46,096 bases of DNA from an uncultured Candidatus Saccharibacteria bacterium (GCA_964554645.1 CAZKPK010000004.1:1-46096); one strand, 5' to 3'; shown: positions 28,281 through 45,865, counted from the first letter of the stretch. Program-made: numbers and translations. Notes: generated by a model from the letters alone, not told the origin.

Positions 28281-28284
28281 AATT

Positions 28285-29435: not shown

Positions 29436-30323
29436 GTGTTTATTGTTGCGCTTTTTCTTCTAAAAACGACATCAGTATTTGAAAACAAGGAAACATATAA
29501 GGGAGCTGGTCAAAAAAACGGGTTAACTTATGGCAATGTCACAATCAAAGATTTAGTAAATAAAGATACCGACGGCGACGGAATATTGGATTGGGAAGAA
29601 AGCTTGTGGGGAACGGATCCAGCTAAAAAAGAAACCACTCCCGGAACACCGGATAAAGTGGCAATAGAAAATCTAAAAAAACAAACGGGACAAAACCAGC
29701 AAGGACTACCCTTGCTGAAAGAAAATAGTCAAGGTATAGAAAATTTAACTAAAACCGACCAGTTTTCCAGAGAACTTTTTAGCACCATCGCCACCTTGAA
29801 CCAAAATGGAATTGTGGACCAAGCGACCATAGATAAATTGGGAGCTTCTTTGGCCGAAAAAATCCAAAATCCCGTCATTAGAAAAGTTTTTTCAATTTCC
29901 GAAATGAAGATAATAAACGACAACAGTATTCAAGCTTTTACAAATTACAGTAATACTTTAAATAGCATTTTCCAAAAATACCCAACCACTTATTCAGTAT
30001 TGGATGTATTGCAAGAATTTATAATTGATGAAAACAATGTTGATATTAGCGCGCTAAAAAAACTTGACCCAATTGTGGAACAATCAAATAAAGTGATAAT
30101 TGCGATGATAAAAATGAGTGTGCCACAATCCATTTCAATAGCACATTTAAATTTCATAAATGCGCTGGAAAGATTAGTGGAAAATGTAAATGACATAAAA
30201 CTTTATGAGACTGACGCTATCGTGGCTTTGGGTGGCATAAGTAAATATCAAGAAAAGACCACTCAATTAGAATCAAGCCTCAATAATCTCATAAATGCAA
30301 TCGAACAAAAATTGAAGAACTGA
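29436..30323 (+). CDS. Hypothetical membrane-anchored protein with a DxDxDG calcium-binding-like motif (first gene of the T4SS-like cluster)
   Basis: GTG start inside a hydrophobic segment. The frame is open from 29376 (..KQKRTLWIAFAVVFIVALFLL) but holds no canonical start upstream. DTDGDGILDWEESLWGTDP motif; the rest appears helical. Confidence 0.45.
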   Translation: MFIVALFLLKTTSVFENKETYKGAGQKNGLTYGNVTIKDLVNKDTDGDGILDWEESLWGTDPAKKETTPGTPDKVAIENLKKQTGQNQQGLPLLKENSQGIENLTKTDQFSRELFSTIATLNQNGIVDQATIDKLGASLAEKIQNPVIRKVFSISEMKIINDNSIQAFTNYSNTLNSIFQKYPTTYSVLDVLQEFIIDENNVDISALKKLDPIVEQSNKVIIAMIKMSVPQSISIAHLNFINALERLVENVNDIKLYETDAIVALGGISKYQEKTTQLESSLNNLINAIEQKLKN

Positions 30324-30350
30324 GTGAAAAATCATATAATAAATGACAAA

Positions 30351-32822
30351 ATGACAGCTAAAAATAAAACAATAAAACTCATTTCCGCTTTTCTGATTAT
30401 CTCTATGATCGCGCCCACTGTTTTACTTTCTGTACCTAAAAAAGCAAACGCATTCGGCTTTATAGTATATGATCCAACGAATACAGCTGTAGCCACAAAA
30501 AATTCAATTGGTAACTGGATATCCAAAGCCTTTAACGCTATAACCTCAAAAGCAACGACAATAAGTGCCCTAAAAGACACTAAAGAATGGGCGGCGTGGC
30601 TTCTTACTACGACACTTAGAACAGTCGCAAAAGCAGTCTTAGCAAGAATGACTCAAGCCACCATAAACTGGATTAACTCCGATTTCCACGGTTCGCCTCT
30701 TTTCATAGAAAATCCAGAATCTTTCTTTAGAGACATAGCTAAATCAGAATTGAGGAGGTTGGTAGATGCGATCGGTTACGATACTTTTAGATTTCCTTTC
30801 GGTAAACAAACCGCGCTCAATGTCATATCAAGTTATAAAAGACAACTTGCGGACAATGCGGCATATACATTGAGTAATGTAATAAACGACCCCGACCTGC
30901 TTCGCCAATACAGAAATGATTTCAATTACGGAGGGTGGAATGGATTTCTGATAAATACGCAGTATCCACAAAATAATTATTTAGGATTCAATATGATTAT
31001 AGAGCAAAATCTCGCAAGTAGACTGCAGGGAACATTGGTGGCGCCGGCGCAGAAAATACAAAATCTCTTGCAACAAGGAATGGGCTTTTTGTCTCCGCAA
31101 ACTTGTCCAAGCAATCCAAGATATAACAATGGTGTAAATGAATTTTTACAACCGAGCTTTAATGATTCTAAATATGACAAAGAGCATCCTTTCGACCCAA
31201 GCACAGGGGCTAGCGGATCTTTGCAATGGTCTAACGCAAAAGACCAAGCAAAAGCAAGGTGGACTTTTGATAATACCTGCCCAGGCGGTTTAGTAAATAC
31301 TACTCCCGGTTCGGTGGCGGCAAATCAAATAATGACTGCAATGAGTTCAAATTTTAGACAAAGCGAACTCGCGACAGCATTTGGTAATAGCTTATCAGCT
31401 ATTTTTGACGCTCTGATAAATCACTTTTTCGATAAAGGATTAAACGCGCTTGCAGAAACAATCAGCCCCGCGCCTTCGGAAGACAACTGGAGTTATGACG
31501 GAAGCACTCTCGGTGGCGCGACAACATACACCGCTCCTGGAATCAGCGCTTTAAGAATCCCGCAAAATGTTACCGCCACTGTCGGTCAAGTAACCAGCAC
31601 AATGATATCCGGTGGCACCGCGCCTTATAGAATTCAAGATTTTGAACGAAACCGAATAAATCCATCAGTGGCAACCGCCCAAATTTCTGCTTCCGGTCCT
31701 TCCGGCCCCACTCTCACGGTCACTGGCATCGCGCCGGGTCAAACTCTTGTTGTAGTTGAAGATTCATCTAATCCAGTCCAAACTGTTACCGTGCAAATTG
31801 CAATAAATGCTATCGGGGCTTTAACAGTGATCCCACACGATATTTTAACCGATCTTAGTCATCCAATTAGCGCAATCATCTCGGGCGGTGAAGGACCTTA
31901 TTTTCTGCGAATAGGCCCCAATGAAGCGGTGGCCATAGCGGACTTTGCCGGCGCGAACTTGATCGTAAGCGGTATTGAGAGGGGTAATACTTTTATGGTA
32001 ATTGAAGATTCGTCTTTCCCAATCAAAAAAACTACCACTGTCCAAATTACAATAAATGGTCCTGGAGATTTAATCATTCCACAAAATGTTTTGGTTAATG
32101 TTGGTCAGGTGACCAGCGTACCCATAACTGGCGGCACAGAACCTTATCTTGTCACGGACCAACAAGATATCAGAATAGCAACTGGTCAAATCTTTAACGC
32201 TGTTCAAAACACTCCAGCCGCTCTTAAAATAACCGGTATTACGGCGGGCGAAACAGCAATCGTCATTAAAGATTCATCCAGTCCGATTAAAATCGCCAAC
32301 ATAAATATTACAGTAATTGACAATAGAACTTTAATAGTCACTCCGCAAAATATTTCAGCCAGTGTCGGTCAAACGACCATTGCAACCGCATCCGGCGGCG
32401 CGGCGCCTTACAGCCTAAAAACTTCGCCGAATGAAACAGTGGCAACCAGCCAAATTTGGGGTTCCAATATCTTGATCGCCGGTGTCGCTCCGGGTCAAAC
32501 TTCGGTTATCGTTAAAGATTCGTCAACACCCGCTCAAACTGTTACTGTTCCAATCATTATCGGATCGCTGATGATCGCCCCGCAAAATGCTTCTTTTGGC
32601 ATCAGTCAGGCAACTAGCCTAACCATCTCCGGCGGTATGGCGCCTTACAGCATAGAAACTCCGCCCGGCGCGGAAGTGGCGACTGCTCAAATTTTCAATA
32701 ATGGCCAAAGCGCCTCCGCCACCCTCACGATTGTTGGCGTTGCGTCGGGCCAAACTTCGGTTATCGTTAAAGATTCGTCAACACCCGCCAAGACCGCCGG
32801 CATCCAGGTGGTGATAAATTAG
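30351..32822 (+). CDS. Large surface protein: N-terminal TM/signal, ~400-aa domain, then five ~83-aa Ig-like tandem repeats
   Basis: ATG 30351 (MTAKNKTIKLISAFLIISMIAPTVLLSVPKKANA); the tracked GTG at 30324 directly abuts the upstream TGA. Repeats from about 31557 each contain PQN..VGQ.T...SGG.APY ... G.APGQT.V.V.DSS.P. Confidence 0.6.
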   Translation: MTAKNKTIKLISAFLIISMIAPTVLLSVPKKANAFGFIVYDPTNTAVATKNSIGNWISKAFNAITSKATTISALKDTKEWAAWLLTTTLRTVAKAVLARMTQATINWINSDFHGSPLFIENPESFFRDIAKSELRRLVDAIGYDTFRFPFGKQTALNVISSYKRQLADNAAYTLSNVINDPDLLRQYRNDFNYGGWNGFLINTQYPQNNYLGFNMIIEQNLASRLQGTLVAPAQKIQNLLQQGMGFLSPQTCPSNPRYNNGVNEFLQPSFNDSKYDKEHPFDPSTGASGSLQWSNAKDQAKARWTFDNTCPGGLVNTTPGSVAANQIMTAMSSNFRQSELATAFGNSLSAIFDALINHFFDKGLNALAETISPAPSEDNWSYDGSTLGGATTYTAPGISALRIPQNVTATVGQVTSTMISGGTAPYRIQDFERNRINPSVATAQISASGPSGPTLTVTGIAPGQTLVVVEDSSNPVQTVTVQIAINAIGALTVIPHDILTDLSHPISAIISGGEGPYFLRIGPNEAVAIADFAGANLIVSGIERGNTFMVIEDSSFPIKKTTTVQITINGPGDLIIPQNVLVNVGQVTSVPITGGTEPYLVTDQQDIRIATGQIFNAVQNTPAALKITGITAGETAIVIKDSSSPIKIANINITVIDNRTLIVTPQNISASVGQTTIATASGGAAPYSLKTSPNETVATSQIWGSNILIAGVAPGQTSVIVKDSSTPAQTVTVPIIIGSLMIAPQNASFGISQATSLTISGGMAPYSIETPPGAEVATAQIFNNGQSASATLTIVGVASGQTSVIVKDSSTPAKTAGIQVVIN

Positions 32823-32867
32823 AGAGTTACCGTCGGGCTTTTTAGCCCGCTGGTAATTTGAAAAAAT

Positions 32868-33284
32868 ATGAAAATAAATGTGAAACAAGATAATGATGAT
32901 TTTGACAAATGGAATGGCATTAAGAAAAATCTTAATGCACGGGAAGTTAATTCAGTATTGTTTCCACAGTTGGGAGAAATTTGGATGTGTGCTCTTGGAA
33001 AAAATATAGGACGCGAACAAAATGGGGGTGGTCAAAATTTTTCTCGTCCAATGCTCGTTATTAAGAAGTTCAATAACGAAATTTTTTGGGTTTTACCACT
33101 ATCTACTAAACAAAAGAAAATAGATTTTTATTATAATTTTATAGATAAAAATAATCAAAATGTTTCAATTGTCATTTCTCAGATCAGACTGATGCATATC
33201 AAAAGATTTGAAAGAAAACTTTACGATATGAAGATGTCAGCTGTTATAGAAATCAAAAAACGATTGCAGGAATATTTAATATAA
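32868..33284 (+). CDS. PemK/MazF-like toxin-fold protein, with no adjacent antitoxin
   Basis: LGEIWMCALGKNIGREQNGGGQNFSRPMLVIKK matches the MazF/PemK pattern G-D/E-I-W...G-x-E-Q-x-G...R-P-x-L-V-I/L. Confidence 0.55.
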   Translation: MKINVKQDNDDFDKWNGIKKNLNAREVNSVLFPQLGEIWMCALGKNIGREQNGGGQNFSRPMLVIKKFNNEIFWVLPLSTKQKKIDFYYNFIDKNNQNVSIVISQIRLMHIKRFERKLYDMKMSAVIEIKKRLQEYLI

Positions 33285-33440
33285 AATCGAAACCCCGCCA
33301 AAAGGCGGGGGATCTCGGAGCCCGAAGGCACTGTATATATCAAATATAACAAACTGAAAATAAATGTCAAGGAAAAAGAGTGGAATTTGGGTAAATAGTG
33401 TAAAATAGAGTTATAAAGTCTGTAAAGTTCATAAAGTAAA

Positions 33441-35669
33441 ATGCAAAACAAAGTAAAAAAAATAATTCCATACTGCCTGATACTACTTATCCTGGTCGGA
33501 CTGTTTAGCCCGCTGGCGGAGGTGAAGGCGCAAATCACCCCAGGAATAGAGCCATCAGCAATAGCAAAAGCACAAGCGGCGGCGCGAGCGGCTTATGAAG
33601 CAGAACAGGTGAGATTAAAGGCAGCGCCGACTGGTGACGCATTTAAGGACGAAGTTTTTGGGGACTGTGGCATTAAACCCTGGACCTGGCCAGCTTGCTT
33701 TTTATCGGTAGGATTCTATTACACCATTTTCCAACTTCCATCTTGGATTCTTTGGCTATCAGCACAATTTTTTGATGTGATGATCAATCTTGGAATAGAT
33801 AGTTCTGTGACGAGAGCTTCAGGTTTTATCCCCGCTGCCTGGGGGGTTACTCGAGACTTTTCAAATATATTTTTCATACTTATTTTACTTTATGTCGCTA
33901 TCCAAACAATCTTGGGAATGGGTCACGAAACTAAGAAAATAATAGTCCGAGTGATAATTATGGCGTTACTCATAAATTTTTCTATGTTTTTTACGAAAGT
34001 GGTTATTGATTCTTCTAATATCTTGGCTTTAGTTTTTTATAACAAACTTGAAATAAAAAATGCAGATGGAACATCTAGACCAAAAGACCCAGCACTTCAA
34101 ACAGGAAAAGATATATCTGGTGCGATGTGGAAAACTTTTGATGCCACTCAATTGATGACACCAAAAACTATAACACTACTAAAAACAACCACAGTTGAAG
34201 GTATTACAAAAGAAGGAAGCACCATACCTCTTTCTTTAAGACTTGGAATAATGGTAATTGCTGGATCCATTATGCTTTTTGCCGCTTATGCATTTTTTGT
34301 AGCTGGTCTTATGTTTATAGGAAGATTAATTGAACTATGGGTCTTAATTATATTCTCCCCTTTTGCATTTATGTCTTGGCCCATACCACTATTAAGAGGT
34401 ACTGACTATATAGGATGGGATAATTGGTCAAAAAGATTGATTGCGACCTCTTTTATGGCGCCGATTTTTATGTTCTTTATATACTTTATATTTATGCTGT
34501 TGCCAAAAATATCTGAATTTACCAGAGGAGATACAACAACAATATTAGGAACTATCTTGGCTATCTTAATCCCAGCAATGATAGTCTTGGCTCTTCTTCT
34601 AAAGGCAACTCATTTTGCAAAGAAAGGTGGTGGACGGTTTGGAGAATTAATCATGAAAGGCGCAAAAATAGCCGGTGGGCTTGCGGTAGGCGCGGCAACG
34701 GGCGGGACGGCGATGCTGGCAGCGGGGACTATAGGAAAATTTGCTTCAAGTATTGCGAACAACGACGCATTAAAAGCAAAAGCTGCTGCGGGAGACAAGG
34801 GGGCGCAAAGAAAACTTGCATTAGCGAATTCTTTTGCAAACAAGAGCTTCGATCTTCGTCAAACTGGATTAGGAAAATTTGTGGGAACCAAAACCGGCAT
34901 GGATTTCAATAAAGGAACAGGAGTTCTGGGATTAGATACAAAGAAATTTGAGGGCGGACGCAAGGCGCAAGAGGAACGTAAAATAGAAGAAGAACAAAAG
35001 AAACAGAAAACATATGAATTAAGTGGAGATGCTGCAATAAAACAAGTTAATCGTAACGCACAATATGAAGAGGATAAAAAAGTTGCTAAACAAGCTGCGC
35101 AAGCCTATGGTTTTGAATTTAACGAAAAAAACTTTAGGGAAGACTATGAAAAGGGAGGAGATATGGCTTCGCACGGATTAAATAAAACAGTTGATAAAGG
35201 AAGCGTTGGAACTACTGCAGAAATTAACGCTGAACGCAGAACAGCTTATGCAAATAGTTTAGACACCCAACGTGAAAAGGAAAAAGCACAAGGAGCAATG
35301 AAAACATTCTGGGAGGAGTGGAAAAAAGGTGCAAAGAAAATGGTAACAACACCGGGCGGTCTCGCAACAACAGCTACACTGGGAGTTACAACTATGGGAA
35401 TAGGAGCTGTGGCATCTATTATAGGTGGAGGATTTTTGCATGCGCTTAAACAAACACTCAGTGTTCGTGCAACAAATGCTGAAGTGGTGGCAGGAGTACG
35501 TAGAGGAGAAGATAAAGATAAAAAACTTTTAAAGTTGCTAGACGAAAGGAGAAAAGAACATGAAGCAGAAACTCACACAGCACCAGCACACCCACCAGCA
35601 ACGCCGACAGCACCAGCTAATTCAGCCCCATCGCATCCATCGGCAGGAAGTGGAGGTGGGCATCCTTAA
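33441..35669 (+). CDS. TrbL/VirB6-like polytopic membrane protein with a Lys/Ala- and Pro-rich C-terminal tail
   Basis: Signal peptide MQNKVKKIIPYCLILLILVGLFSPLAEVKAQ, about 7 TM helices, and a long hydrophilic tail ending in APAHPPATPTAPANSAPSHPS. Lies in a cluster with PrgI/VirB4. Confidence 0.6.
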   Translation: MQNKVKKIIPYCLILLILVGLFSPLAEVKAQITPGIEPSAIAKAQAAARAAYEAEQVRLKAAPTGDAFKDEVFGDCGIKPWTWPACFLSVGFYYTIFQLPSWILWLSAQFFDVMINLGIDSSVTRASGFIPAAWGVTRDFSNIFFILILLYVAIQTILGMGHETKKIIVRVIIMALLINFSMFFTKVVIDSSNILALVFYNKLEIKNADGTSRPKDPALQTGKDISGAMWKTFDATQLMTPKTITLLKTTTVEGITKEGSTIPLSLRLGIMVIAGSIMLFAAYAFFVAGLMFIGRLIELWVLIIFSPFAFMSWPIPLLRGTDYIGWDNWSKRLIATSFMAPIFMFFIYFIFMLLPKISEFTRGDTTTILGTILAILIPAMIVLALLLKATHFAKKGGGRFGELIMKGAKIAGGLAVGAATGGTAMLAAGTIGKFASSIANNDALKAKAAAGDKGAQRKLALANSFANKSFDLRQTGLGKFVGTKTGMDFNKGTGVLGLDTKKFEGGRKAQEERKIEEEQKKQKTYELSGDAAIKQVNRNAQYEEDKKVAKQAAQAYGFEFNEKNFREDYEKGGDMASHGLNKTVDKGSVGTTAEINAERRTAYANSLDTQREKEKAQGAMKTFWEEWKKGAKKMVTTPGGLATTATLGVTTMGIGAVASIIGGGFLHALKQTLSVRATNAEVVAGVRRGEDKDKKLLKLLDERRKEHEAETHTAPAHPPATPTAPANSAPSHPSAGSGGGHP

Positions 35670-35721
35670 GCAACAAATATTAAAAAGTCGATTATAAAAA
35701 ATACAATACAGTTATAAATAC

Positions 35722-36060
35722 TTGACAACGTATATGCCCCACGCTACAATTAAAAATGAGAGCGGCCGAATATTAAAAGAAGTCTCTGGCTTTGAATGGG
35801 ATGCCGGAAATAGGCAGAAAAGCCTTGTAAAACACGAAGTCAGCAACGAGGAATGTGAGGAAACTTTTTTCGATTATAATAAAGAGATACAGAAAGACAT
35901 TTTGCATTCCATAAATGAAGAACGTCATGTTTTAATAGGACAGACCAAAAAAAGGAGATTATTGTATCTAATATTCACCATAAGGAAAAATAAAATAAGG
36001 GTTATCTTTGCCAGAGACCTTAACAAAAAAGAGCGAAAATTATATGGAGAAAAAAATTAA
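35722..36060 (+). CDS. brnT: BrnT-family toxin (DUF497)
   Basis: FEWDAGNRQKSLVKHEVSNEECEETFFD ... ERHVLIGQT..RLLYLIFTIR.NKIRVIFARDLNKKERKLY fits BrnT. TTG start; ATG 35734 is an alternative. Confidence 0.8.
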   Translation: MTTYMPHATIKNESGRILKEVSGFEWDAGNRQKSLVKHEVSNEECEETFFDYNKEIQKDILHSINEERHVLIGQTKKRRLLYLIFTIRKNKIRVIFARDLNKKERKLYGEKN

Positions 36061-36310
36061 AATTCCAAAATTTAAAAATGAAGACGAGGAAAGAAATTTT
36101 TGGCTGAAGTTGGATCTGTCCAAACATTTTGAGAGATTTGACTTTGAGAGAGTATCGTTCCCCAATTTAAAACCTTCTTCTCGGCCTATTTCATTACGCC
36201 TGCCGTCACATTTAATCGCGCGGGTCAAAGAACATGCAAATGAGATAGATATGCCCTATCAGTCATTGATGAAAAAATATATCGCTCAAGGAATATTAAA
36301 AGAAATCTAA
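36044..36310 (+). CDS. brnA: BrnA-family antitoxin
   Basis: ISLRLPSHLIARVKEHANEIDMPYQSLMKKYIAQGI is a CopG/RHH-like BrnA C-terminus. ATG 36044 overlaps the end of brnT. Confidence 0.75.
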   Translation: MEKKIKIPKFKNEDEERNFWLKLDLSKHFERFDFERVSFPNLKPSSRPISLRLPSHLIARVKEHANEIDMPYQSLMKKYIAQGILKEI

Positions 36311-36317
36311 ATATTTT

Positions 36318-37037
36318 ATGGACGATAATATAACAAAAATAATAAAGGAAAAGTTCGATGCCCTACCACAAAGCATTCAGGAAATGATTCTGTCCACCAA
36401 TTATCAAGACACTCTGATAGAAATCGGGAAACAATATCAGTTGAATGTAGAACAAATGGGTATTCTTGAAAGGGAAACCACCCTTGTAATGATGGGGTTA
36501 ACACCCACCAAAAATTTTGAAGTTGAACTAACGCGTGAACTTCATGTTGATAAATTTAAAGGGTCTCAAATCGTCAAAGATATAAATGAAAAAATATTTT
36601 TAAGAATTAGAGAATTATTAAAACTAATGAATACCCCGAAAGGGGAAGAACCATCGCTCGAAAATTCTCCTCCTGAGAAGTACCCCTTAGAGGGAAGTGG
36701 ACAAATCTATCCACCCCGGCTTTCAGCCACCCCTCAAGAGGGGAATAAAAATGATACAACAATTCTAAACAAAGCCGGCATTGAAATTATTCCGGGAAAG
36801 TTAGAACTCGCGAATGGAGAAAAACCAATAGAAAATAGAGAAGACATCTTAAAAAAAATAGAAAAGCCGGAAGAAGTGCATCCGATACTAGCGCAAAAAT
36901 TATCTGGCTCTTTACAAACCCCAGTAATAAAAACAGAACATTCTCTGGAAAATCTTACAAAGACAAACACGCCAATACCACAGAAACCGCAAACCTATCC
37001 TAAAAACTTGGATCCGTATCGCGAAATGCCAGAATAA
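36318..37037 (+). CDS. Hypothetical protein carrying an in-frame palindromic element
   Basis: 239 aa, no family recognised. The element copy lies at 36663-36746. Confidence 0.45.
   Translation: MDDNITKIIKEKFDALPQSIQEMILSTNYQDTLIEIGKQYQLNVEQMGILERETTLVMMGLTPTKNFEVELTRELHVDKFKGSQIVKDINEKIFLRIRELLKLMNTPKGEEPSLENSPPEKYPLEGSGQIYPPRLSATPQEGNKNDTTILNKAGIEIIPGKLELANGEKPIENREDILKKIEKPEEVHPILAQKLSGSLQTPVIKTEHSLENLTKTNTPIPQKPQTYPKNLDPYREMPE
36663..36746 (+). repeat. Palindromic repeat element family, copy 2 (84 nt = 28 codons, in frame)
   Basis: aattctcctcctgagaagtaccccttagagggaagtgg...ccacccctcaagaggggaat. Same orientation and reading frame as copy 1; encodes NSPPEKYPLEGSGQIYPPRLSATPQEGN. Confidence 0.8.
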
Positions 37038-37114
37038 TTACGAATTATCAATTAATGTTCTATAATGAAGTGTGGCTGTTGATTATTCGTAATTGTTAAT
37101 TCGTAATTAATTTT

Positions 37115-37528
37115 ATGCAGTTTAAGGTTCCACAATTTTTGGACATAGAGGATAAGATTTTCGGTCCGTTCACTTTTAAAGAGTTCGTTTATTTGGCGGG
37201 CGGAGCGGGTTTATGCTTCGTGCTTTATAAATTATTGGGACTGGTCCTGGGCGCCATACCAATCTTAGCGGTGGCGGGGCTTTCCATCGCTCTGGCCCGC
37301 TATCGGCCAAACAACAAACCTTTCATCAATATGATTGGAGCGGGATTTAATTATTTTGCGCAGAATAAGCTCTACATCTGGGAAAGACGCAAGAACACAA
37401 TTAAGAATGACAAGTCGCGAATTGCGAGTGAAAATAAAAATATTATTGATAGAGAGACAGTAAGATTGGGCGGGAACAAGCTGCGGGATTTGGCTTGGAG
37501 CTTAGATGTGCTAGATTTAAAAAAATAA
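37115..37528 (+). CDS. PrgI-family (VirB3-like) T4SS membrane protein
   Basis: MQFKVPQFLDIEDKIFGPFTFKEFVYLAGGAGLCFVLY is the characteristic PrgI N-terminus followed by two TM helices. Lies directly upstream of VirB4. Confidence 0.7.
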   Translation: MQFKVPQFLDIEDKIFGPFTFKEFVYLAGGAGLCFVLYKLLGLVLGAIPILAVAGLSIALARYRPNNKPFINMIGAGFNYFAQNKLYIWERRKNTIKNDKSRIASENKNIIDRETVRLGGNKLRDLAWSLDVLDLKK

Positions 37529-37583
37529 TATTTTTTTAAATCAGTTATAAAGTAAAAAAAAGTTTATAAAGTAGAAAAAGAAA

Positions 37584-38222
37584 ATGTTAAAAGCAAAAGC
37601 AACTCAAGAGTTTGTGCCAATCAAGGAAGTCCGCGACGGAGTAATTGTGCTGAAAGATGGCGGACTGCGGGCAATTATACTTGCCAACTCGGTCAATCTA
37701 TCTTTAAAATCGGACGATGAACAAAAAGCGACCATCCTTCAATTCCAGAGTTTTCTTAATACTTTGGATTTTGCCATCCAAATATCAGTCCAATCAAGAA
37801 GACTGGATATCCGACCTTATCTTTTGCTTTTGGAAGACAGGGTAAAAGTGCAAAGCGAGCCCTTGCTTAAGTTGCAGACCAAAGAATACATAGAATTCAT
37901 TAAGAATTTCACCGATTCAGTGAGCATAATGACCAAAAGTTTTTTTGTGGTAGTTCCATATACTCACACGATCCTGAAATCAGATTCCGGAATATTAAAA
38001 CGTTTCTTTGGGAGAAAAAATAAAGAAGAGGAAAAAATAGCCAAGCAAGAAGATTTTGAGGAAAAGAGGTCTCAGTTGGAAGAAAGGGTAAGCGTAATCC
38101 AGCAAGGGCTCAGTCGCTGTGGCATAAAATCCGTCCAGTTGGGCACCGAAGAGGTGGTGGAGGTGTTTTATAAAGTTTTCAACCCGGGAGAAGTGGAGGG
38201 GAAAATTAAGCTAGAAGCTTAA
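37584..38222 (+). CDS. VirB4-like ATPase, N-terminal domain encoded as a separate ORF
   Basis: ATQEFVPIKEVRDGVIVLKDGGLRAIILANSVNLSLKSDDEQKATILQFQSFLNTL matches the N-terminus of Gram-positive VirB4 (Tn916 Orf16/CD1110-type: QDTIPY..V..NGII....G.....Y.L..INF.....EEQ..I...Y...LN). Confidence 0.6.
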   Translation: MLKAKATQEFVPIKEVRDGVIVLKDGGLRAIILANSVNLSLKSDDEQKATILQFQSFLNTLDFAIQISVQSRRLDIRPYLLLLEDRVKVQSEPLLKLQTKEYIEFIKNFTDSVSIMTKSFFVVVPYTHTILKSDSGILKRFFGRKNKEEEKIAKQEDFEEKRSQLEERVSVIQQGLSRCGIKSVQLGTEEVVEVFYKVFNPGEVEGKIKLEA

Positions 38223-38239
38223 TTTTCAAGTAAAAATAT

Positions 38240-40081
38240 ATGTCAATATTGGATAAACTGTTCAAAAAAAGTAGCGCAAATATAAGTAATGATGTAAAAG
38301 TATCAGTCTTGGCGGTCTTGCCGGAACAAATCTATGAATCGGCCAGCTTGGAACTTCAAGATGTCATCGCGCCTTCGGCGCTCAAAATTGAACCAAAATC
38401 CATAAACTTGGGCGACAAAATCGCCCGCACATTTTTCATAATATCTTACCCGCGATTTTTGACGGATAACTGGTTTTCCCCAATAATCAATTTGGACAAG
38501 GTTTTTGATATTTCAATTTTCATCCACCCAATTGATACATCTTTGATGTTGCGACAATTCCAGAAAAAAGTCGCGGAAGTGCAAAGCCAAATAAGTGTGC
38601 GGGAAACAAAAGGGATGGTGCGCGACCCGATGCTGGACACCTCTTACCAAGATCTGGAAAGGCTTCGCGACAGCTTGATTCAGGCGCAAGAAAAAATGTT
38701 TGATGTGGGTATTTATATAACTATCTATGCTGATAACGACTTGGAATTATTCAAAACGGAAAATGAAATAAAATCAATGCTGGAATCAAAACTGATCTAC
38801 ATCAAACCGGCACTTTTTCAGCAGGAAGACGGCTTCAAGAGCGTGATCCCGACCAACACTGATTTGCTGAATATCCACCAGAAATTAAATTCGGAACCGC
38901 TTTCCAGCGTTTTCCCATTCATCTCTTTTGATCTTACCTCCGATAAAGGAATACTTTACGGCATCAACCGGCACAATTCAAGTTTGGTCATTTTTGACAG
39001 ATTTTCTCTGGAGAATTATAACTCGGTGACATTTGCCAAGGCTGGTTCGGGCAAATCATACGCGGCAAAATTGGAAATTCTTCGATCTTTAATGTTTGAC
39101 ACGGATGTGATAGTCATCGATCCGGAACGAGAATATGAATTCTTGTCGGAAGCGGTGGGTGGACGATATTTTAACATTTCACTTTCTTCCGATCACCATA
39201 TCAATCCTTTTGATCTGCCAATACCGCGCGAAGACGAAACAGCCGAAGACGTTTTGCGCTCAAACATTATCAACTTAGTCGGACTTTTCCGATTGATGTT
39301 GGGAGGACTCACGCCCGAGGAAGATTCAATGGTGGATCGAGCCATTTCCGAAACTTATGCCATCAAGGATATTACTCCGGAATCAGATTTTTCCAATATT
39401 AAGCCTCCGCTTCTTTCAGATTTTGAAATGGTGCTGGGAGGAATGGAAGGAAGCGATTCGGTTGTGCAACGTTTGGTAAAATACACAAAGGGCTCTTGGG
39501 CAACCTTTTTAAATAGGCCAAGCAATGTGGATATCAACAAAAAGTTTATCGTTTTTTCAGTTCGCGATATGGAAGATGAATTAAAACCGGTCGCAATGTA
39601 TATAATTATGCATTACATCTGGAATGCGATACGGAAAAATCTAAAAAAACGTTTATTGGTTGTTGATGAAGCTTGGTGGATGATGAAATCTGAAGACACC
39701 GCTTCTTTCCTTTATTCTATCGCCAAAAGAGGCAGAAAATATTATTTAGGCCTTTCCACGATCACCCAAGACGCGGCTGATTTTATGAATTCTCCTTATG
39801 GCGTGCCGATAATCACCAACTCTTCCATCCAACTCCTCTTGAAACAGTCGCCTACCACGATTGATATTTTGCAAAAAAGTTTTAATTTGACTGATGAAGA
39901 AAAATATCTTCTTTTGGAATCCGGCATCGGGGAAGGCATATTTTTCGCGGGCTTAAAACATGTTGCCATAAAAATAATCGCCTCTTATACGGAAGACCAG
40001 ATTATAACCTCTGATCCTTCGCAAATATTATCTAATAGAAAAGCGAAAGAAGAACAAGAAATGGCAGAGATGAAAAGTTAG
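38240..40081 (+). CDS. VirB4/TraC-like T4SS ATPase (central and ATPase domains)
   Basis: IARTFFIISYPRFLTDNWFSPIINLD, Walker A FAKAGSGKSYAAK, Walker B RLLVVDEAWWMM, STITQDAADF. Confidence 0.88.
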   Translation: MSILDKLFKKSSANISNDVKVSVLAVLPEQIYESASLELQDVIAPSALKIEPKSINLGDKIARTFFIISYPRFLTDNWFSPIINLDKVFDISIFIHPIDTSLMLRQFQKKVAEVQSQISVRETKGMVRDPMLDTSYQDLERLRDSLIQAQEKMFDVGIYITIYADNDLELFKTENEIKSMLESKLIYIKPALFQQEDGFKSVIPTNTDLLNIHQKLNSEPLSSVFPFISFDLTSDKGILYGINRHNSSLVIFDRFSLENYNSVTFAKAGSGKSYAAKLEILRSLMFDTDVIVIDPEREYEFLSEAVGGRYFNISLSSDHHINPFDLPIPREDETAEDVLRSNIINLVGLFRLMLGGLTPEEDSMVDRAISETYAIKDITPESDFSNIKPPLLSDFEMVLGGMEGSDSVVQRLVKYTKGSWATFLNRPSNVDINKKFIVFSVRDMEDELKPVAMYIIMHYIWNAIRKNLKKRLLVVDEAWWMMKSEDTASFLYSIAKRGRKYYLGLSTITQDAADFMNSPYGVPIITNSSIQLLLKQSPTTIDILQKSFNLTDEEKYLLLESGIGEGIFFAGLKHVAIKIIASYTEDQIITSDPSQILSNRKAKEEQEMAEMKS

Positions 40082-40120
40082 TCATCAACTTAAAAGTGCA
40101 AAGTTGTAAAGTGAATATGA

Positions 40121-40126
40121 TATAAT
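40121..40126 (+). promoter_or_regulatory. Extended -10 (TGaTATAAT) 6 nt upstream of ATG 40133
   Basis: tgatataat taaact ATG. Confidence 0.45.
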
Positions 40127-40132
40127 TAAACT

Positions 40133-41119
40133 ATGAGGTTAAAATTCTTATCGTTATATTTGATTGCAACATTCGCGTTATTGGGGGTAATTCTCATGCC
40201 CCAAACAGGCACTGCCCAATCTAGCGGCATCTTGGTTAACATCGCACCTCCCAGCCCAGCTCCATATGAAAACACCAGTATTACTTTGAAAAGTTATGAG
40301 TATAATCTGGATACTGTTTTGATCGCTTGGTCGGTGGATGGTAAAAGTGTTTCGTCCGGGATCGGAAAAAAATCTTTTTCTGTAAACGCTCCCGGCGCCG
40401 GCTTGGAAACAAGCGTCAGCGCCACGCTATCTCTGCCAGATGGAGTAGTGGAAAAAAAAATAACAATCAAGCCGACCATTATGGTATTGCTTTGGCAAGC
40501 GAACGATTCTTATGTCCCGCCATTTTATAAAGGCAAGGCTTTGCCGACACCCGACAGCGAAGTAAAAGTGATCGCGATGCCCGAAATAAGAGCTGGTTCT
40601 GGCTTAGTTGATCCACAAAATATGACTTATTCTTGGAAAAAAGATTATACCAACAATGTGGACGGCTCAGGTTATGGTAAAAACTTTTTTCTTTACATTA
40701 ATGATTATTTGGACGATTCAAATAATATATCGGTGGCAGTTTCAACCGTGGATCAGAACTATTCAAGCCAGGCAAACATAGATATAGGAACGACGCAGCC
40801 GAAAATACTGTTCTACAAAAACGACAATATATTCGGAACTCTTTGGAATATGGCGCTGACCGATACCTATAAAATACAAGGAGAGGGGATAGTGGAGGCG
40901 GTGCCTTATTTTATCTCGCCAAAAGAAATCCAAAATCCGACGTTAATATGGAGCTGGTCTATTAACGATAGCCCAGTAAGCTTAACAAGCTTCAAAAAAA
41001 ATTTAATGCCGCTTCAAGTAGAAGCGGGAACACACGGGACATCTAAACTAGGGCTTAGTATTGAAAATCAAGACAAAATTTTTCAGACAACCAACAAGGA
41101 AATAAATATAGAATTCTAA
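40133..41119 (+). CDS. Secreted beta-rich hypothetical protein of the T4SS-like cluster
   Basis: Signal peptide MRLKFLSLYLIATFALLGVILMPQTGTAQS. No family recognised. Confidence 0.45.
   Translation: MRLKFLSLYLIATFALLGVILMPQTGTAQSSGILVNIAPPSPAPYENTSITLKSYEYNLDTVLIAWSVDGKSVSSGIGKKSFSVNAPGAGLETSVSATLSLPDGVVEKKITIKPTIMVLLWQANDSYVPPFYKGKALPTPDSEVKVIAMPEIRAGSGLVDPQNMTYSWKKDYTNNVDGSGYGKNFFLYINDYLDDSNNISVAVSTVDQNYSSQANIDIGTTQPKILFYKNDNIFGTLWNMALTDTYKIQGEGIVEAVPYFISPKEIQNPTLIWSWSINDSPVSLTSFKKNLMPLQVEAGTHGTSKLGLSIENQDKIFQTTNKEINIEF
41099..41119 (+). repeat. Left 21-nt direct repeat flanking the NYN cassette (3' end and stop codon of the preceding gene)
   Basis: gaaataaatatagaattctaa versus gaaataagtatagaattctaa at 41724-41744 (20/21). 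Confidence 0.75.
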
Positions 41120-41125
41120 TTTTTT

Positions 41126-41647
41126 ATGAAAAATGTAAATAAAAATTATGCCTTCATAGATGCTCAAAATGTTCATTTAGGTATTTTGGAGTTCGGTTGG
41201 AAAATTGATTGGAAGAAATTTAGAATTTGGCTTAGAAATAAATTCGGCATTGAAAAAGCTTTAATATTTATCGGATATAATAAAGGCAATGAAAGTCTCT
41301 ACGCTTTTTTACAACATGCCGGATTTGTCTGCATTTTCAAACCAACTCTTGCATACAAAGATGGAACGGTGAAAGGCAACTGTGATGCAGAACTAGTTTT
41401 ACATTCTGCCGCTATTGAATTTGAAAATTATAATAAAGCTGTTATAGTTTCAGGTGATGGCGATTTTGCCTGCTTAATAGAATTTTTACAAGAAAAAAAT
41501 AAACTTGAAATGCTTGTCGTGCCAAACGAAAATAAATACTCCGCCTTGTTAAAAAGATTCAACACATCGAAGAAAAAATTTATTTTATTTCTTAACAGAG
41601 AAAGAACGAAAATAGAATATAGTCCCACAAATGAAAAGGGCGCATAA
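41126..41647 (+). CDS. NYN-domain (LabA-like) protein, second copy of the fold in the window
   Basis: YAFIDAQNVHLGI ... VIVSGDGDFACLIEFLQ. Confidence 0.8.
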   Translation: MKNVNKNYAFIDAQNVHLGILEFGWKIDWKKFRIWLRNKFGIEKALIFIGYNKGNESLYAFLQHAGFVCIFKPTLAYKDGTVKGNCDAELVLHSAAIEFENYNKAVIVSGDGDFACLIEFLQEKNKLEMLVVPNENKYSALLKRFNTSKKKFILFLNRERTKIEYSPTNEKGA

Positions 41648-41723
41648 AGCATAAAGCCATATGCAGCCTTCTCGTGATGATGCAACCATTATACACCAGT
41701 ATGAAAATAAAAGTCAAGCAAAT

Positions 41724-41744
41724 GAAATAAGTATAGAATTCTAA
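41724..41744 (+). repeat. Right 21-nt direct repeat flanking the NYN cassette
   Basis: See 41099-41119. It still reads ..EISIEF-stop in frame, like the gene end EINIEF-stop. Confidence 0.75.
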
Positions 41745-41758
41745 GTAGTTATAAAGTT

Positions 41759-41764
41759 TATAAA
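41759..41764 (+). promoter_or_regulatory. -10-like TATAAA 6 nt upstream of ATG 41771, within the duplicated gttataaagt/tataaagta motif
   Basis: gttataaagtttataaagtaaaa ATG. The same motif lies upstream of ATG 33441 and ATG 37584. Confidence 0.4.
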
Positions 41765-41770
41765 GTAAAA

Positions 41771-42556
41771 ATGCAAAGAAAAATAATATTATACATTTTA
41801 ATACTCATTATGTTGGTTGGACTGTTTAGCCCGCTAGCGCAGATACATGCACGAACTCTGACACAAGCAGAACAACAACAAATAACTTCTCAGCAGGCAA
41901 TATTAGATTCAACTAAAGCAGAATATGTTAGTTTGGGTAATGCATCAGGGGGAACAGCGGCACAACAAAAGGCGCGCACTCAAAGATATAATGAACTACA
42001 AACAATAAGGGATGCTGCTACTGCAAAGATAAATTACATACAGAACATGGCTAAAAAAGACTTACGGCCGGAAACAATACAGCAAAATCTCAATCCTAAA
42101 TCAGCAACTCCTGCTCCAACACCTGCAATAACTCCCTCAAACACGAATTATCAGCTTTTAGCTCCGCTACCCGACCCCAATAAATCAAATGAATTAGTCA
42201 GGGAGTTTGATACCGCGGGGGGGCTAGGTAAATATTTAAACCAAATAATAAAAATTTTTATTGGCTTAGCTGCGGTTTTGTCGGTAGTGATGATTGTGGT
42301 GGGCGGACTGGAATATATGACCAGTGAATTACCGGGGTTAAAAAGCGAAGGCAAGGAAAGAATAATCCATGCAATTTTAGGACTCCTAATTGCCCTCGGC
42401 GCTTACGCGCTTCTTTTTACCATAAATCCCGACCTGCTTAAATCTGATGTAGATAAAAAGATAGCGCCTACAACCGTTACTCCGCCTGCAACCGCTAAGC
42501 CTGCAGTTACAACGCCTTCATTACAACCAGTTGTTTCACCACCTGTTATTCCATAA
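41771..42556 (+). CDS. T4SS pilin-like (VirB2/TrbC-like) protein
   Basis: Signal peptide MQRKIILYILILIMLVGLFSPLAQIHA. C-terminal module LGKYLNQIIKIFIGLAAVLSVVMIVVGGLEYMTS...GKERIIHAILGLLIALGAYALLFTI, which is two hydrophobic helices typical of T4SS pilins. Pro/Thr-rich tail. Confidence 0.65.
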   Translation: MQRKIILYILILIMLVGLFSPLAQIHARTLTQAEQQQITSQQAILDSTKAEYVSLGNASGGTAAQQKARTQRYNELQTIRDAATAKINYIQNMAKKDLRPETIQQNLNPKSATPAPTPAITPSNTNYQLLAPLPDPNKSNELVREFDTAGGLGKYLNQIIKIFIGLAAVLSVVMIVVGGLEYMTSELPGLKSEGKERIIHAILGLLIALGAYALLFTINPDLLKSDVDKKIAPTTVTPPATAKPAVTTPSLQPVVSPPVIP

Positions 42557-42673
42557 TAAATTTTACCTGTCCCGTAACTAAATTTTAGATTAAAAAAATA
42601 TTAAATAAATATAAAAATAGGATATAATAAGTTAAATAAATAATGATAATTATAAATAAATTTTAGTACTGGG

Positions 42674-43924
42674 ATGCCAAAAAGAAATTTCATACTTTTA
42701 ATAATAATCTTGAGTTTAGTAATAATAGCGGTCTTTGGATTTTTATATTTTCAAAAAGAGCCGAAGGTTCCGGAAGACAGCAGTGTGGGCATAAATTTTA
42801 TTTCGCAATTCAATCCATTCGCAACCAAACTAAAACCTCCGGCGGTAATCCCTCCAGCTGATATCTCAAATCAGTCTCCCCCTGAAACAGTGGGAGAAAA
42901 ACTAACCAAGGTTTCCAGTATGCCTGTAGCGGGATTTATAGTATTTGTAAAGGAAAGATTAAAAGATGAAGGGACTGAATTTGCGCCGGCTTTAAGATAT
43001 GCAGAAAAAGCGAGTGGGAACATCTATCAGACTTTTGCGGATAAAATAGAAGAACAAAAGTTCTCAAAAACTTTAATTCCTAAAGTGCACGACGCATATT
43101 TTGGCAATCGCGGGGAGTCTGTGGTTATGCGATATTTAAAGGAGGACGGGAAAACCATCGAAACTTTTGCTGGCGCTCTGCCAAAGGAATTGTTGGGGGG
43201 GGAGATAATAGGAAACAATGAAATTAAAGGGTCTTTCCTGCCCAACAATGTAAAGGACCTAAGCGTATCACCTGATGGCTCAAAAATATTCTATTTGTTT
43301 ATTAGCGGGGAGAATATGGTGGGTACGATTTTAAACTTAGCAAACAATAAAAAAGTTCAGGTGTTCGATTCTCCTTTTACCGAGTGGCTGTCGCTCTGGC
43401 CGGCTAAAAATATCATCACTTTCACAACGAAGCCTTCTGCGAACATTCCCGGATATATGTATAGCGCTGATGCAGCTGGAAAAAATTTGACTAAAGTATT
43501 GGGTGATATAAATGGACTAACCACGCTTATGAGCCCAAATGGAAAATTGGTTCTTTCTGGTGACAACAATCTTTCATCATATATCTATCATCTGGACAGC
43601 AGAAATTCGGACCCGTTGGGAGTAAAGACTCTGCCCGAAAAGTGCGTCTGGAGTAAAATGAGCGACGTTGCTTACTGCGCCGTGCCAAAATCAATCAACC
43701 CGGGCGAATATCCAGATGTCTGGTATCGGGGAGAAATGTCTTTCAGCGATCAATTTTGGAAAATAGATATTAAAACCGGAAATGCGACCCTGTTGTTGGA
43801 TCCGGTTGCTAGCGCGGGGGGAGAAGAAATTGATGGCATAAAGCTTGCCCTAGATGAAAACGAAAATTACTTATTTTTTGTGAATAAAAAAGATTCTTTC
43901 CTTTGGAAACTGGAACTCAAATAA
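42674..43924 (+). CDS. Membrane-anchored protein with PD40/TolB-like beta-propeller repeats
   Basis: N-terminal TM helix; SPDGSKIFY and SPNGKLVLSGDNN repeat motifs. Confidence 0.45.
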   Translation: MPKRNFILLIIILSLVIIAVFGFLYFQKEPKVPEDSSVGINFISQFNPFATKLKPPAVIPPADISNQSPPETVGEKLTKVSSMPVAGFIVFVKERLKDEGTEFAPALRYAEKASGNIYQTFADKIEEQKFSKTLIPKVHDAYFGNRGESVVMRYLKEDGKTIETFAGALPKELLGGEIIGNNEIKGSFLPNNVKDLSVSPDGSKIFYLFISGENMVGTILNLANNKKVQVFDSPFTEWLSLWPAKNIITFTTKPSANIPGYMYSADAAGKNLTKVLGDINGLTTLMSPNGKLVLSGDNNLSSYIYHLDSRNSDPLGVKTLPEKCVWSKMSDVAYCAVPKSINPGEYPDVWYRGEMSFSDQFWKIDIKTGNATLLLDPVASAGGEEIDGIKLALDENENYLFFVNKKDSFLWKLELK

Positions 43925-44054
43925 AATTTCCCTCTTGAGGGGTGACCCGATGGTCATCGGGTCGGGGTGGATACACCTCACCCCAGCCCTCTCCTGAAAG
44001 GAGAGGGGGAATTCATCCACCTCCCCCTCAAGGGCACTCCTCAAGAGGAGAATT
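43925..44054 (-). repeat. Palindromic repeat element family, copy 3 (130 nt, intergenic, opposite orientation, with an extra nested palindrome)
   Basis: The reverse complement starts aattctcctcttgaggagtgcccttgagggggaggtgga and ends gacccgatgaccatcgggtcacccctcaagagggaaatt. It carries the additional ccctctcct-ttc-aggagaggg. It fills the whole spacer between two convergent stop codons. Confidence 0.8.
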
Positions 44055-44547
44055 AAATGCCCCCCACGTACTTAATCACCACTCGACGAGTGTGCCCTAT
44101 GCCCATTGATTCAGTTTTCAGATCGGTTGCATTAGATAAAAACTCATGCACAATTCGGCGCTCGAAAGCCGACATTGGATTAACTTCTATGCTGGATTTA
44201 AAATATCTAGCTCGTTCTCCCATCATGTGAGCTATGGCGCGGATATTTTCTACATGCTTTTTCTGAAAACCATTTATATCAATTAAAATATTATTATCCC
44301 CAAAGACGGTCATCGGGGAATCCCCGATGACCGTCTTTGGGGTTCTGTTTTCAATAACTCTGCGCACAAGGTGGTTTAACGCATAAAGCGCCTCACCATC
44401 ATGTCCAATAAAAAAATGCGGTTCACTAACCTCAACGGAAAACCAGGTGTTGCTTGGACCATCTTCCGTAATAATAATTTTGGTTGTTGCTATTCCGGTT
44501 TTTTCAATTAATTCTTTTATTAAATTTTGGATTTCTTCTTTTTTCAT
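44053..44547 (-). CDS. jag: Jag/KhpB-like RNA-binding protein (KH + R3H domains)
   Basis: Position downstream of yidC. R3H region MSAFERRIVHEFLSN..LKTESMG.GHTRRVVI. Contains a 45-nt perfect palindrome in frame. Confidence 0.85.
   Translation of the reverse strand: MKKEEIQNLIKELIEKTGIATTKIIITEDGPSNTWFSVEVSEPHFFIGHDGEALYALNHLVRRVIENRTPKTVIGDSPMTVFGDNNILIDINGFQKKHVENIRAIAHMMGERARYFKSSIEVNPMSAFERRIVHEFLSNATDLKTESMGIGHTRRVVIKYVGGI
44298..44342. repeat. 45-nt perfect palindrome (22 + 1 + 22) in frame in jag
   Basis: ccccaaagacggtcatcgggga a tccccgatgaccgtctttgggg. Encodes PKTVIGDSPMTVFGD. Its core gacggtcatcgggg resembles gatggtcatcgggt of the element family. Confidence 0.85.
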
Positions 44548-44551
44548 AAAA

Positions 44552-45289: not shown

Positions 45290-45359
45290 CCTTTTATCTT
45301 ACCCTGAAGTAAAATTTTTAGCAAAATTTACTACGGGGCAAGTATTAAAATATGATTAC

Positions 45360-45581
45360 CTAATTTAATGGGTCTAGATGATTTTTCTGCCACGGATGAC
45401 AGCGCAGAATGCGAAAAAAACCCAAATAAGCGCCTTTTAAAACTCCATATTTTTCTACCGCCTGTTTTGTATATTCAGAACAAGAAGGATAAAAAACGCA
45501 ACTTGGTTTTATAAAAACAGAAATATGCTTCTGGTAAAAATTAATTAATTTTATTGAGTATATTCTTAATTTCATTTTCAA
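45360..45581 (-). CDS. yidD: Membrane protein insertion efficiency factor YidD
   Basis: LINFYQKHIS....CVFYPSCSEYTKQAVEKYGVLKGAYLGFFRILRCHPW. Confidence 0.9.
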   Translation of the reverse strand: MKMKLRIYSIKLINFYQKHISVFIKPSCVFYPSCSEYTKQAVEKYGVLKGAYLGFFRILRCHPWQKNHLDPLN

Positions 45582-45864: not shown

Positions 45865-45865
45865 A

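Follow-up and report, generated by a model that had tools for sequence, protein, structure and literature searches.

The 46,096-nucleotide stretch of DNA analysed here, from an uncultured Candidatus Saccharibacteria bacterium (GCA_964554645.1 CAZKPK010000004.1:1-46096; hereafter the window), appears to be an entire contig and carries a type IV secretion system (T4SS) cluster of 14 open reading frames (ORFs), all on the plus strand, at 29436-43924. The cluster is a copy of the Patescibacteria-type T4SS already published between 2023 and 2025 (Wang 2023; Quinonero-Coronel 2025), a chromosomal system without relaxase that nearly all of these ultra-small bacteria have beside the replication origin, and because it matches that system in every tested feature, an earlier interpretation made from the DNA alone (the sequence-only reading), which had proposed a chromosomal T4SS-like machine, was correct but described something already known. 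What is new is the set of uncharacterised accessory proteins, chiefly the all-alpha N-terminal domain (N-domain) of an 832-aa surface protein. In the explanation that we consider highly probable, the cluster, near the origin of a Nomurabacteria/Paceibacteria-like bacterium of the candidate phyla radiation, descends by vertical inheritance from monoderm conjugation machinery of the mating-pair formation (MPF) class FATA, is itself non-conjugative, and serves epibiotic host interaction. The parts list of this machine, its conservation and its non-mobile nature emerge directly from the comparisons set out below.

Conservation and inheritance of the cluster

The comparison set comprised 80 loci from species-level genomes, retrieved with the VirB4 protein and labelled Nomurabacteria, Paceibacterota or Patescibacteria, against which each protein of the window was searched by tblastn; presence is counted over loci with complete flanks, numbering 47 on the upstream and 59 on the downstream side. 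The dominant order in the 80 loci, with genes lacking a family name given by their start in the window, is rsmA-29436-30324-33441-36318-PrgI-TrsD-VirB4-40133-pilin-42674-jag/yidC/rnpA. Ten genes thus form a syntenic core in the Nomurabacteria/Paceibacteria lineage, and the comparison of gene order that had been proposed along with the sequence-only reading returned the same arrangement across the 80 relatives. The placement of the cluster between rsmA (27937-29346) and the minus-strand jag-yidC-rnpA-rpmH block (44053-46000), together with the ORF coordinates first given, was confirmed by an ORF check and by hidden Markov models (HMMs) run on the flanks. The locus is laid out as follows (TM, transmembrane; Ig, immunoglobulin; AF2, AlphaFold2).

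27937-29346, plus strand: rsmA/ksgA, 16S rRNA dimethyltransferase, the upstream flank (RrnaAD 177.5 bits, residues 166-378)
29436-30323, plus strand: 'u295', TM helix, TSP3-type repeat and alpha-helical C-domain (TSP3_bac 22 bits, below cut-off)
30324-32822, plus strand: 832-aa secreted surface protein, all-alpha N-domain and five Ig-like repeats (repeat analysis, AF2)
32868-33284, plus strand: PemK/MazF-type toxin (PF02452, 38 bits)
33441-35669, plus strand: polytopic membrane protein in the VirB6/PrgH position (TM scan, 47/47 relatives)
35722-36060, plus strand: BrnT toxin (PF04365, 67.5 bits)
36008-36310, plus strand: CopG/BrnA-type antitoxin (PF12441, 85.2 bits)
36318-37037, plus strand: 'u239', cytoplasmic, function not assigned (without TM helix, signal peptide or family match)
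37115-37528, plus strand: PrgI/VirB3-like small membrane protein, VirB4 membrane anchor (PF12666, 28.8 bits)
37584-38222, plus strand: TrsD-like, separately encoded VirB4 N-terminal domain (NF041427 TrsD, E 1.6e-6)
38240-40081, plus strand: VirB4 ATPase, MPF-FATA / CD1110 type (NF045971, 362.2 bits)
40133-41119, plus strand: 'u328', membrane-anchored or secreted, about three Ig-like beta-sandwich domains (TM scan, weak ortholog matches)
41126-41647, plus strand: NYN-domain (PIN-like RNase) gene (PF01936, 47 bits)
41771-42556, plus strand: VirB2-type pilin (PF18895, 30.8 bits)
42674-43924, plus strand: 'u416', single-pass membrane protein, probable beta-propeller (PD40/TolB-like) ectodomain (TM scan, weak PD40)
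44053-44547, minus strand: jag (R3H match)
44552-45289, minus strand: yidC (60KD_IMP match)
45541-45864, minus strand: rnpA
45866-46000, minus strand: rpmH (L34 sequence read)

Four ORFs in three cassettes (MazF, BrnTA and NYN) are recent strain-specific insertions and not parts of the machine, since PemK/MazF recurs in two of the 80 relatives, the BrnT/antitoxin pair in one, and the NYN gene in two, at other positions. The NYN gene lies between the two copies of a direct repeat of about 50 nt (76% identity, 41096-41145 versus 41721-41770), in which the end of ORF 40133 is duplicated; this arrangement is consistent with a cassette insertion.

The inheritance of the cluster can be followed through its most conserved product, VirB4, for which the median identity across the relatives is 86%, as against 69% for PcrA, 64% for YidC, 57% for Jag, 47% for RsmA and 46% for RnpA. 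These values point to a tighter constraint on VirB4 than on the adjacent housekeeping genes, and the divergence of VirB4 tracks theirs (Spearman rho 0.66-0.90). Fixed synteny, the better conservation of VirB4 than of its neighbours and this co-divergence together indicate that the cluster has been inherited vertically and is not an integrated conjugative element (ICE). In one relative (L010) dnaA-dnaN follows directly after rnpA-rpmH, which places the cluster close to the origin; its GC content is unremarkable.

A GC-rich palindromic element occurs in three copies, at 29090-29166 (in frame in rsmA), 36680-36746 (in frame in ORF 36318) and 43925-44053 (in the gap between ORF 42674 and jag). The cluster lies between two identical copies of a 20-mer, GACCCGATGGTCATCGGGTC, at 29129 and 43944, where chance alone would give 0; because the 20-mer belongs to this dispersed element, which is also found in ORF 36318, it is not an att site. 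An ICE assignment drawn from the flanking repeats and the toxin-antitoxin (TA) genes was rejected in view of synteny, co-divergence and the dispersed repeat family.

VirB4 and its partners

The 613-aa product of 38240-40081 scores 362.2 bits against NF045971 (model positions 183-733), for which the curated cut-off is 325, and 83 bits against P-loop_TraG, with intact Walker A (AGSGKS) and Walker B (LLVVDEAW) motifs. Identity to it is 75-92% in the 80 Nomurabacteria/Paceibacteria genomes versus at most 35% for any of 2,511 plasmid records, its grouping with Patescibacteria being judged by such identity as a proxy in place of a tree. Residues 43-571 align with residues 228-772 of pCF10 PrgJ (E 2e-38), and since the alignment begins only at PrgJ residue 228, the 212-aa TrsD-like protein encoded at 37584-38222 is predicted to provide the N-domain, that is, the approximately 180 N-terminal residues absent from VirB4. 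The TrsD-like protein matches only the N-terminal ~200 positions of several VirB4 models as well as TrsD (E 4e-10 to 1.5e-4), including VirB4_plasma positions 102-238 (E 3.7e-10) and VirB4_CagE positions 4-185; its scores fall far short of the curated cut-offs set for full-length proteins, as those of a protein the size of one domain should. It is present in all 47 relatives with a full upstream flank, at a median identity of 74%, like VirB4 above the 46-69% of the adjacent housekeeping proteins.

The sequence-only reading had described VirB4 as spread over two ORFs. Both are indeed VirB4-related by HMM, the second being VirB4 itself and the first a separate trsD gene: in each of the 79 loci holding both, they are distinct ORFs, trsD with its own stop and virB4 with a new ATG, separated by spacers of 1-673 nt and lying in different frames in 57 of the 79. 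A frameshift or pseudogene is ruled out by the retention of the split in 79/79 relatives, and the split is, as judged from these alignments, ancestral. The spacer itself is variable, with a small inserted ORF of some 110-130 aa in three relatives (L061, L067 and L073) and, in others (L005, L010, L011, L039 and L054), stretches of heptad-like (C/T)TAG/TAAAG repeats, through which stop codons arise in several reading frames.

Two further components that had been proposed from the DNA alone pass their family models. The PrgI/VirB3-like protein (37115-37528) scores 28.8 bits against PF12666 (cut-off 27) and is found in 47/47 full-flank relatives at 41-79% identity. The VirB2-like pilin (41771-42556), present in 58 of the 59 downstream-complete relatives, reaches 30.8 bits against PF18895 (cut-off 26.6), with a sub-threshold match to TrbC/VirB2 (21 bits) and a match to the Mbov_0395 pilin-like family (E 3e-5). 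It combines a signal peptide, a Q/A/P-rich insert of about 100 aa, a YQLLAPLP motif, TM helices at 159-177 and 198-216, and a Pro/Thr-rich tail; in short pilin orthologs the Y-x-LLAPLP motif stands directly after the signal peptide.

The pilin gene and the gene for the polytopic protein, compared over 41747-41855 and 33409-33534, have an upstream motif, AAAGTTnATAAAGTAAAA, in common, which is also found before trsD at 37559, and the two products carry a near-identical signal peptide, ..ILILVGLFSPLA... Over 51 genomes the similarity of these N-termini is greater within than between genomes (median score 32 vs 28, p=0.002). This pattern, most extreme in the window, suggests that the two leaders occasionally undergo conversion.

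Absence of transfer genes on the contig and near virB4

Pfam scans, which took in the large ORFs of the window, detected neither relaxase nor MobC, VirD4 or integrase in any of them, and tblastn searches with the MobC, relaxase and VirD4 of a Brevibacillus plasmid returned nothing from the window or from the 10-kb flanks of virB4 in the 80 relatives, so that the negatives for coupling protein and relaxase cover the contig and these 10-kb surroundings. The sole recombinase in the window is a Xer-type gene at 13249, 15 kb from the cluster. In the Brevibacillus and pCF10 plasmids, MobC-relaxase-VirD4 and a hydrolase stand beside the same VirB4 family. The initial observation that the cluster holds no VirD4-like ATPase, relaxase or integrase therefore stands for this contig and, given that no coupling protein, relaxase or integrase is adjacent, the cluster is probably not conjugative. 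A chromosomal machine with some other role, as was proposed at the outset, is supported by the HMMs, by synteny in the 80 relatives and by the literature.

The polytopic protein in the VirB6 position

The product of 33441-35669 has a signal peptide, some six to seven TM helices (residues 86-386, TM scan) and a 300-aa hydrophilic K/E/A-rich tail, an architecture resembling that of an 'extended VirB6'. It occurs in 47/47 full-flank relatives and sits where PrgH does in pCF10, beside VirB3/VirB4. The sequence-only reading had called it TrbL/VirB6-like: that it is polytopic is upheld by the TM scan, but the family assignment found no backing among family models, for neither the protein nor any of 45 orthologs gave a Pfam or NCBIfam match to TrbL/VirB6 (PF04610) at E<=0.5. 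Likewise, a profile search of the PDB gave no match, nor did a tblastn search of 72,556 plasmids.

When residues 290-399 were compared by hhalign with positions 150-265 of a PrgH-family profile, whose members carry PF04610, the match was weak and not significant (probability 2.1%, E 0.023). In this alignment the family-invariant R295/P307 fall in register with the PrgH-invariant R155/P167 (R-x11-P), and two independent single templates from the VirB6 position aligned with this region too, again weakly and without significance by hhalign. Topology, gene position and the register-consistent match to PrgH make VirB6 homology likely, though not demonstrated.

The 832-residue surface protein

The protein encoded at 30324-32822, whose likely start is the ATG at 30351 (yielding 823 aa, as in the public-data call), bears a signal peptide and five Ig-like repeats of about 85 aa at residues 418-832, with 23-39 identical positions of some 77 in each pair; repeat analysis thus agrees with the surface protein of 820-830 aa and five such repeats that had been described beforehand. 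A T2SS-T3SS_pil_N match falls inside one repeat. The protein is encoded in 39 of the 47 full-flank relatives, where the gene for the polytopic protein follows directly.

The conserved N-domain, some 360 aa long (residues ~85-400 in its conserved part), gave no family match and no PDB sequence match. A first AF2 model, built from 38 sequences, was poor (predicted local distance difference test, pLDDT, 60.8) and had no fold matches; a second, from 109 sequences, was all-alpha at moderate confidence (pLDDT 70.5; predicted template modelling score 0.45), and Foldseek returned for it spurious long-helix matches (best E 0.67), with no VirB5 entry listed. An exhaustive profile search assigned to the N-domain family 5,919 representative clusters (50% identity) at E<=1e-3 and 3,234 at <=1e-30, in which the domain is always N-terminal and whole-protein lengths run from 356 to 2,150 aa; no Pfam model exists for this family.

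The N-terminal region had also been said to recall VirB5/TrbJ, a resemblance that neither HMM nor fold comparison supports. The sequence P-V-x-D often follows the signal peptide in relatives of the protein; DUF4141 is matched below threshold in 2 of 38 orthologs (best 24.8 bits, cut-off 30), the matched stretch being the signal peptide plus the first residues, while TrbJ is matched at E 0.03 in one of the 38 and not in the window protein. A VirB5/TrbJ identity was accordingly rejected as unsupported, there being no HMM match in the window protein, sub-threshold matches in a few orthologs and no fold match in the PDB.

A 2025 survey of 3,035 genomes found no adhesin in Patescibacteria T4SSs (Quinonero-Coronel et al., PMC12102498), which makes the 832-aa protein a reasonable new candidate for an adhesin or host-recognition component. 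It is conceivable, if rather unlikely, that the N-domain is the missing extracellular component of the Patescibacteria T4SS, either a VirB5 counterpart at the pilus tip or a module penetrating the wall or the host envelope, in which case the fast-evolving Ig tail would set host specificity and the capped pilus would import host RNA/DNA.

Further accessory proteins

The sequence-only reading had listed four secreted or membrane proteins without assigned function. This description fits 29436, 40133 and 42674, each with a TM or hydrophobic helix, but not 36318, which lacks TM helix and signal peptide and is cytoplasmic.

The first of these, u295 (29436), contains a calcium-binding TSP3-type repeat, DTDGDGILDWEE, scoring 22 bits against TSP3_bac (cut-off 25), and its orthologs share a YLPSK-TM-TSP3 architecture with a complete TM helix; it is present in 33/47 full-flank relatives, always between rsmA and the following gene. 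Its ORF is open from 29376, and the first half of the TM helix, LWIAFAVVFIVALFLL, precedes the sole canonical start, a GTG at 29436; the gene may have a non-canonical start codon.

The cytoplasmic u239 (36318), found directly upstream of PrgI in 36 of the 47 relatives, has a conserved helical N-domain of about 100 aa and a variable low-complexity tail holding the in-frame palindromic repeat element; it showed no family match. Immediately after virB4 in every case, and in 58/59 full-flank relatives, lies u328 (40133), with an N-terminal hydrophobic helix and weak Ig_3, BiPBP_C and PKD_3 matches in 4-7 of 45 orthologs. Equally widespread (58/59) is u416 (42674), which has a TM helix at 6-24 and weak PD40 matches in 4/45 orthologs, one ortholog being fused to PG_binding_1 (E 5e-11). 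Profile searches of the PDB gave nothing credible for either u328 or u416.

An M23 peptidase with two LysM domains is encoded on the minus strand at 24836-26134, 3 kb upstream of the cluster. Homologues of VirB1 containing M23/LysM occur near virB4 in Paceibacteria (PMC12102498), and this peptidase may be the wall-opening enzyme of the T4SS.

Neighbouring genes and other features of the contig

The longest rsmA ORF, of 469 aa, and the last part of pcrA/uvrD (26172-28280) share about 340 nt, and some 165 residues (27937-28430), including KKALGxKTINGFARA tandem repeats, precede the methyltransferase domain of RsmA; the true start is probably much later, downstream of 27937. At the beginning of the contig, on the minus strand, are fragments of a secreted protein of the Tc/RHS-like polymorphic-toxin type (2-2332 and 2685-3809; SpvB, FG-GAP, TcdB_toxin_midN and YD-shell). 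The same contig encodes polynucleotide phosphorylase (PNPase) at 9898-12060, likewise on the minus strand; PNPase and a T4SS have been tied to host-RNA feeding in the same phylum in a 2026 preprint (bioRxiv 10.64898/2026.06.21.733656). Scans for promoters and terminators gave no signal above shuffled expectation, and Rfam found four tRNAs and nothing else.

Comparison with known systems

According to the 2025 survey, the VirB4 proteins of Patescibacteria (2,425 proteins) form a clade nested in MPF-FATA, with TrsD as the commonest partner and pilins close to virB4; hardly any relaxases occur, and ksgA/rnpA/rpmH/dnaA neighbour virB4 in Paceibacteria (PMC12102498). For the T4SS of S. epibionticum (SEML1_0006-0019), a role other than conjugation was deduced by its authors, who saw no coupling or relaxase proteins (Wang et al. 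2023, PMC10633639); this species cannot grow as an epibiont without the T4SS genes and the pilin array, whereas comEC is dispensable (PMC10633639, PMC12857230). The cluster described here shares with these systems (PMC12102498, PMC10633639) the MPF-FATA-type VirB4, the separate TrsD, PrgI/VirB3, a VirB2-like pilin near virB4, a polytopic protein of VirB6 type, the absence of a relaxase and of an adjacent type IV coupling protein (T4CP), and the origin-proximal chromosomal site beside ksgA, rnpA, rpmH and dnaA. It differs from that of S. epibionticum in having one pilin gene instead of an array of six, and an Ig-like protein (40133) after virB4 instead of peptidase/lysozyme genes. The accessory set 29436/30324/36318/40133/42674, conserved in the Nomurabacteria/Paceibacteria relatives compared here, is not individually described in either study (PMC10633639, PMC12102498).

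Among the conjugative MPF-FATA systems of monoderms, whose VirB4 is 25-35% identical to that of the window, the Trs system of pGO1/pSK41 (TrsC-TrsD-TrsE) and the Prg/Pcf system of pCF10 (PrgH-PrgI-PrgJ-PrgK-PrgL) have the same order of VirB6-like, VirB3-like, (TrsD) and VirB4 proteins, the pGO1 subclass also showing the same split into TrsD and VirB4 (PMC12102498). The plasmid systems carry MobC, relaxase, VirD4 and a VirB1-type hydrolase directly after VirB4, as well as a VirB8-like protein, none of which is recognisable here. Conversely, they are without a VirB2 pilin and reside on plasmids or ICEs, whereas the present cluster has a pilin and is chromosomal.

H. pylori ComB and archaeal Ced are T4SS-derived DNA importers built from VirB2/3/4/6-type parts without a coupling protein or relaxase, both of them cited in PMC11665869 and PMC12102498, and it is in the parts list that the likeness to the cluster lies. 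ComB has in addition an outer-membrane core (B7, B9 and B10) and feeds ComEC; in S. epibionticum, where ComEC is dispensable and the T4SS essential, an import route would therefore differ from that of ComB.

Proposed function and its alternatives

The way in which such a machine would operate can be sketched from its parts. VirB4/TrsD, docked on PrgI and the polytopic protein, would power the extraction of the pilin and its assembly by polymerisation into a VirB2-type tube passing through the monoderm wall, while 40133 (Ig-like), 42674 (propeller) and 29436 (TSP3/helical) would scaffold passage across the envelope and the 832-aa protein, with its variable Ig-repeat tail, would contact the host surface. 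The machine as a whole would serve interaction with the host cell of an epibiont and not the transfer of a plasmid or ICE.

As to what is moved, we tentatively favour import of material from the host cytoplasm, nucleic acid above all, over export and adhesion. One reason is a parts list like that of ComB and Ced, importers that work without a T4CP, and another that these are organisms without nucleotide synthesis. Import is further favoured because comEC is dispensable and the T4SS essential in S. epibionticum, because the T4SS has been put forward as a route for acquiring nucleotides (PMC11665869), and because tubular structures connecting cells, together with the uptake of host RNA, have been reported in one cultured member of the Microgenomatia (bioRxiv 10.64898/2026.06.21.733656).

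Several points weigh against this account. The searches identified no cargo, effector or nucleic-acid-binding component in the cluster, and recognised in it no VirB8-like or VirB1-like protein; the VirB6 homology of the polytopic protein is statistically unsupported by HMMs on 45 orthologs and by hhalign; and the essentiality data come from Saccharimonadia, not Paceibacteria. Moreover, VirD4-like genes may lie elsewhere in this genome, since most Patescibacteria genomes have them, usually far from virB4 (PMC12102498); their presence would keep a role in export open. The function and the direction of transport are, finally, what we infer from the parts and not what was observed.

It is possible, though we hold it to be less probable than import, that the same machine works outward, injecting or releasing protein effectors or toxins that subvert or permeabilise the host bacterium, in the manner of effector-translocating T4SSs. 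Protein export was raised as an alternative by Wang 2023 (PMC10633639), effector delivery is a common speculation (PMC11665869), exporters independent of a T4CP are known in the Ptl and Brucella VirB systems (PMC12102498), and the Tc/RHS-like polymorphic-toxin-type protein is encoded on the same contig. Yet these T4CP-less exporters rely on an outer-membrane core, absent from a monoderm, and on a periplasmic intermediate that a monoderm likewise lacks. Neither the cluster nor the 10-kb flanks of virB4 in the 80 relatives encode a coupling protein, and the conserved set has no recognisable effector-like or chaperone gene.

A purely adhesive pilus for host attachment, with the 832-aa protein as adhesin and no substrate moved, seems improbable. 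Such a pilus would accommodate the pilin and the large Ig-repeat surface protein, both conserved members of the cluster, and equally the strong variation among relatives in the length of the C-terminal repeat region, as expected for host-specific binding; it fits less well with a VirB4 conserved more than its housekeeping neighbours and with a conserved polytopic protein, which suggests transport.

Finally, an ICE or its decaying remnant, with relaxase, coupling protein and integrase lost or off-contig, might be suspected from a VirB4 family typical of Firmicute conjugative elements, its spread over two ORFs, the three TA/nuclease cassettes inside the cluster and the identical 20-nt flanks (29129/43944), but is very improbable given the same gene order and chromosomal site in 80 species with co-divergence of the neighbours, ten intact core ORFs, a VirB4 that is the region's most conserved protein and ancestrally split from TrsD, unremarkable GC, cassettes absent from relatives, a 20-mer that is part of a dispersed palindromic element, and an rpmH at the contig end that is followed in relatives by dnaA.

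Implications for epibiotic Patescibacteria

The T4SS of Patescibacteria is a major open problem of ultra-small host-dependent bacteria, and in the single species tested it is essential. The cluster described here is probably vital for life on the host cell. For Nomurabacteria/Paceibacteria, the present analysis adds to the published picture a ten-gene core, the constraint on VirB4, the recent TA/nuclease insertions and a short list of unannotated envelope proteins. These conserved envelope proteins, and especially the N-domain family of 30324-32822, are sensible targets for understanding how epibionts tap their hosts.

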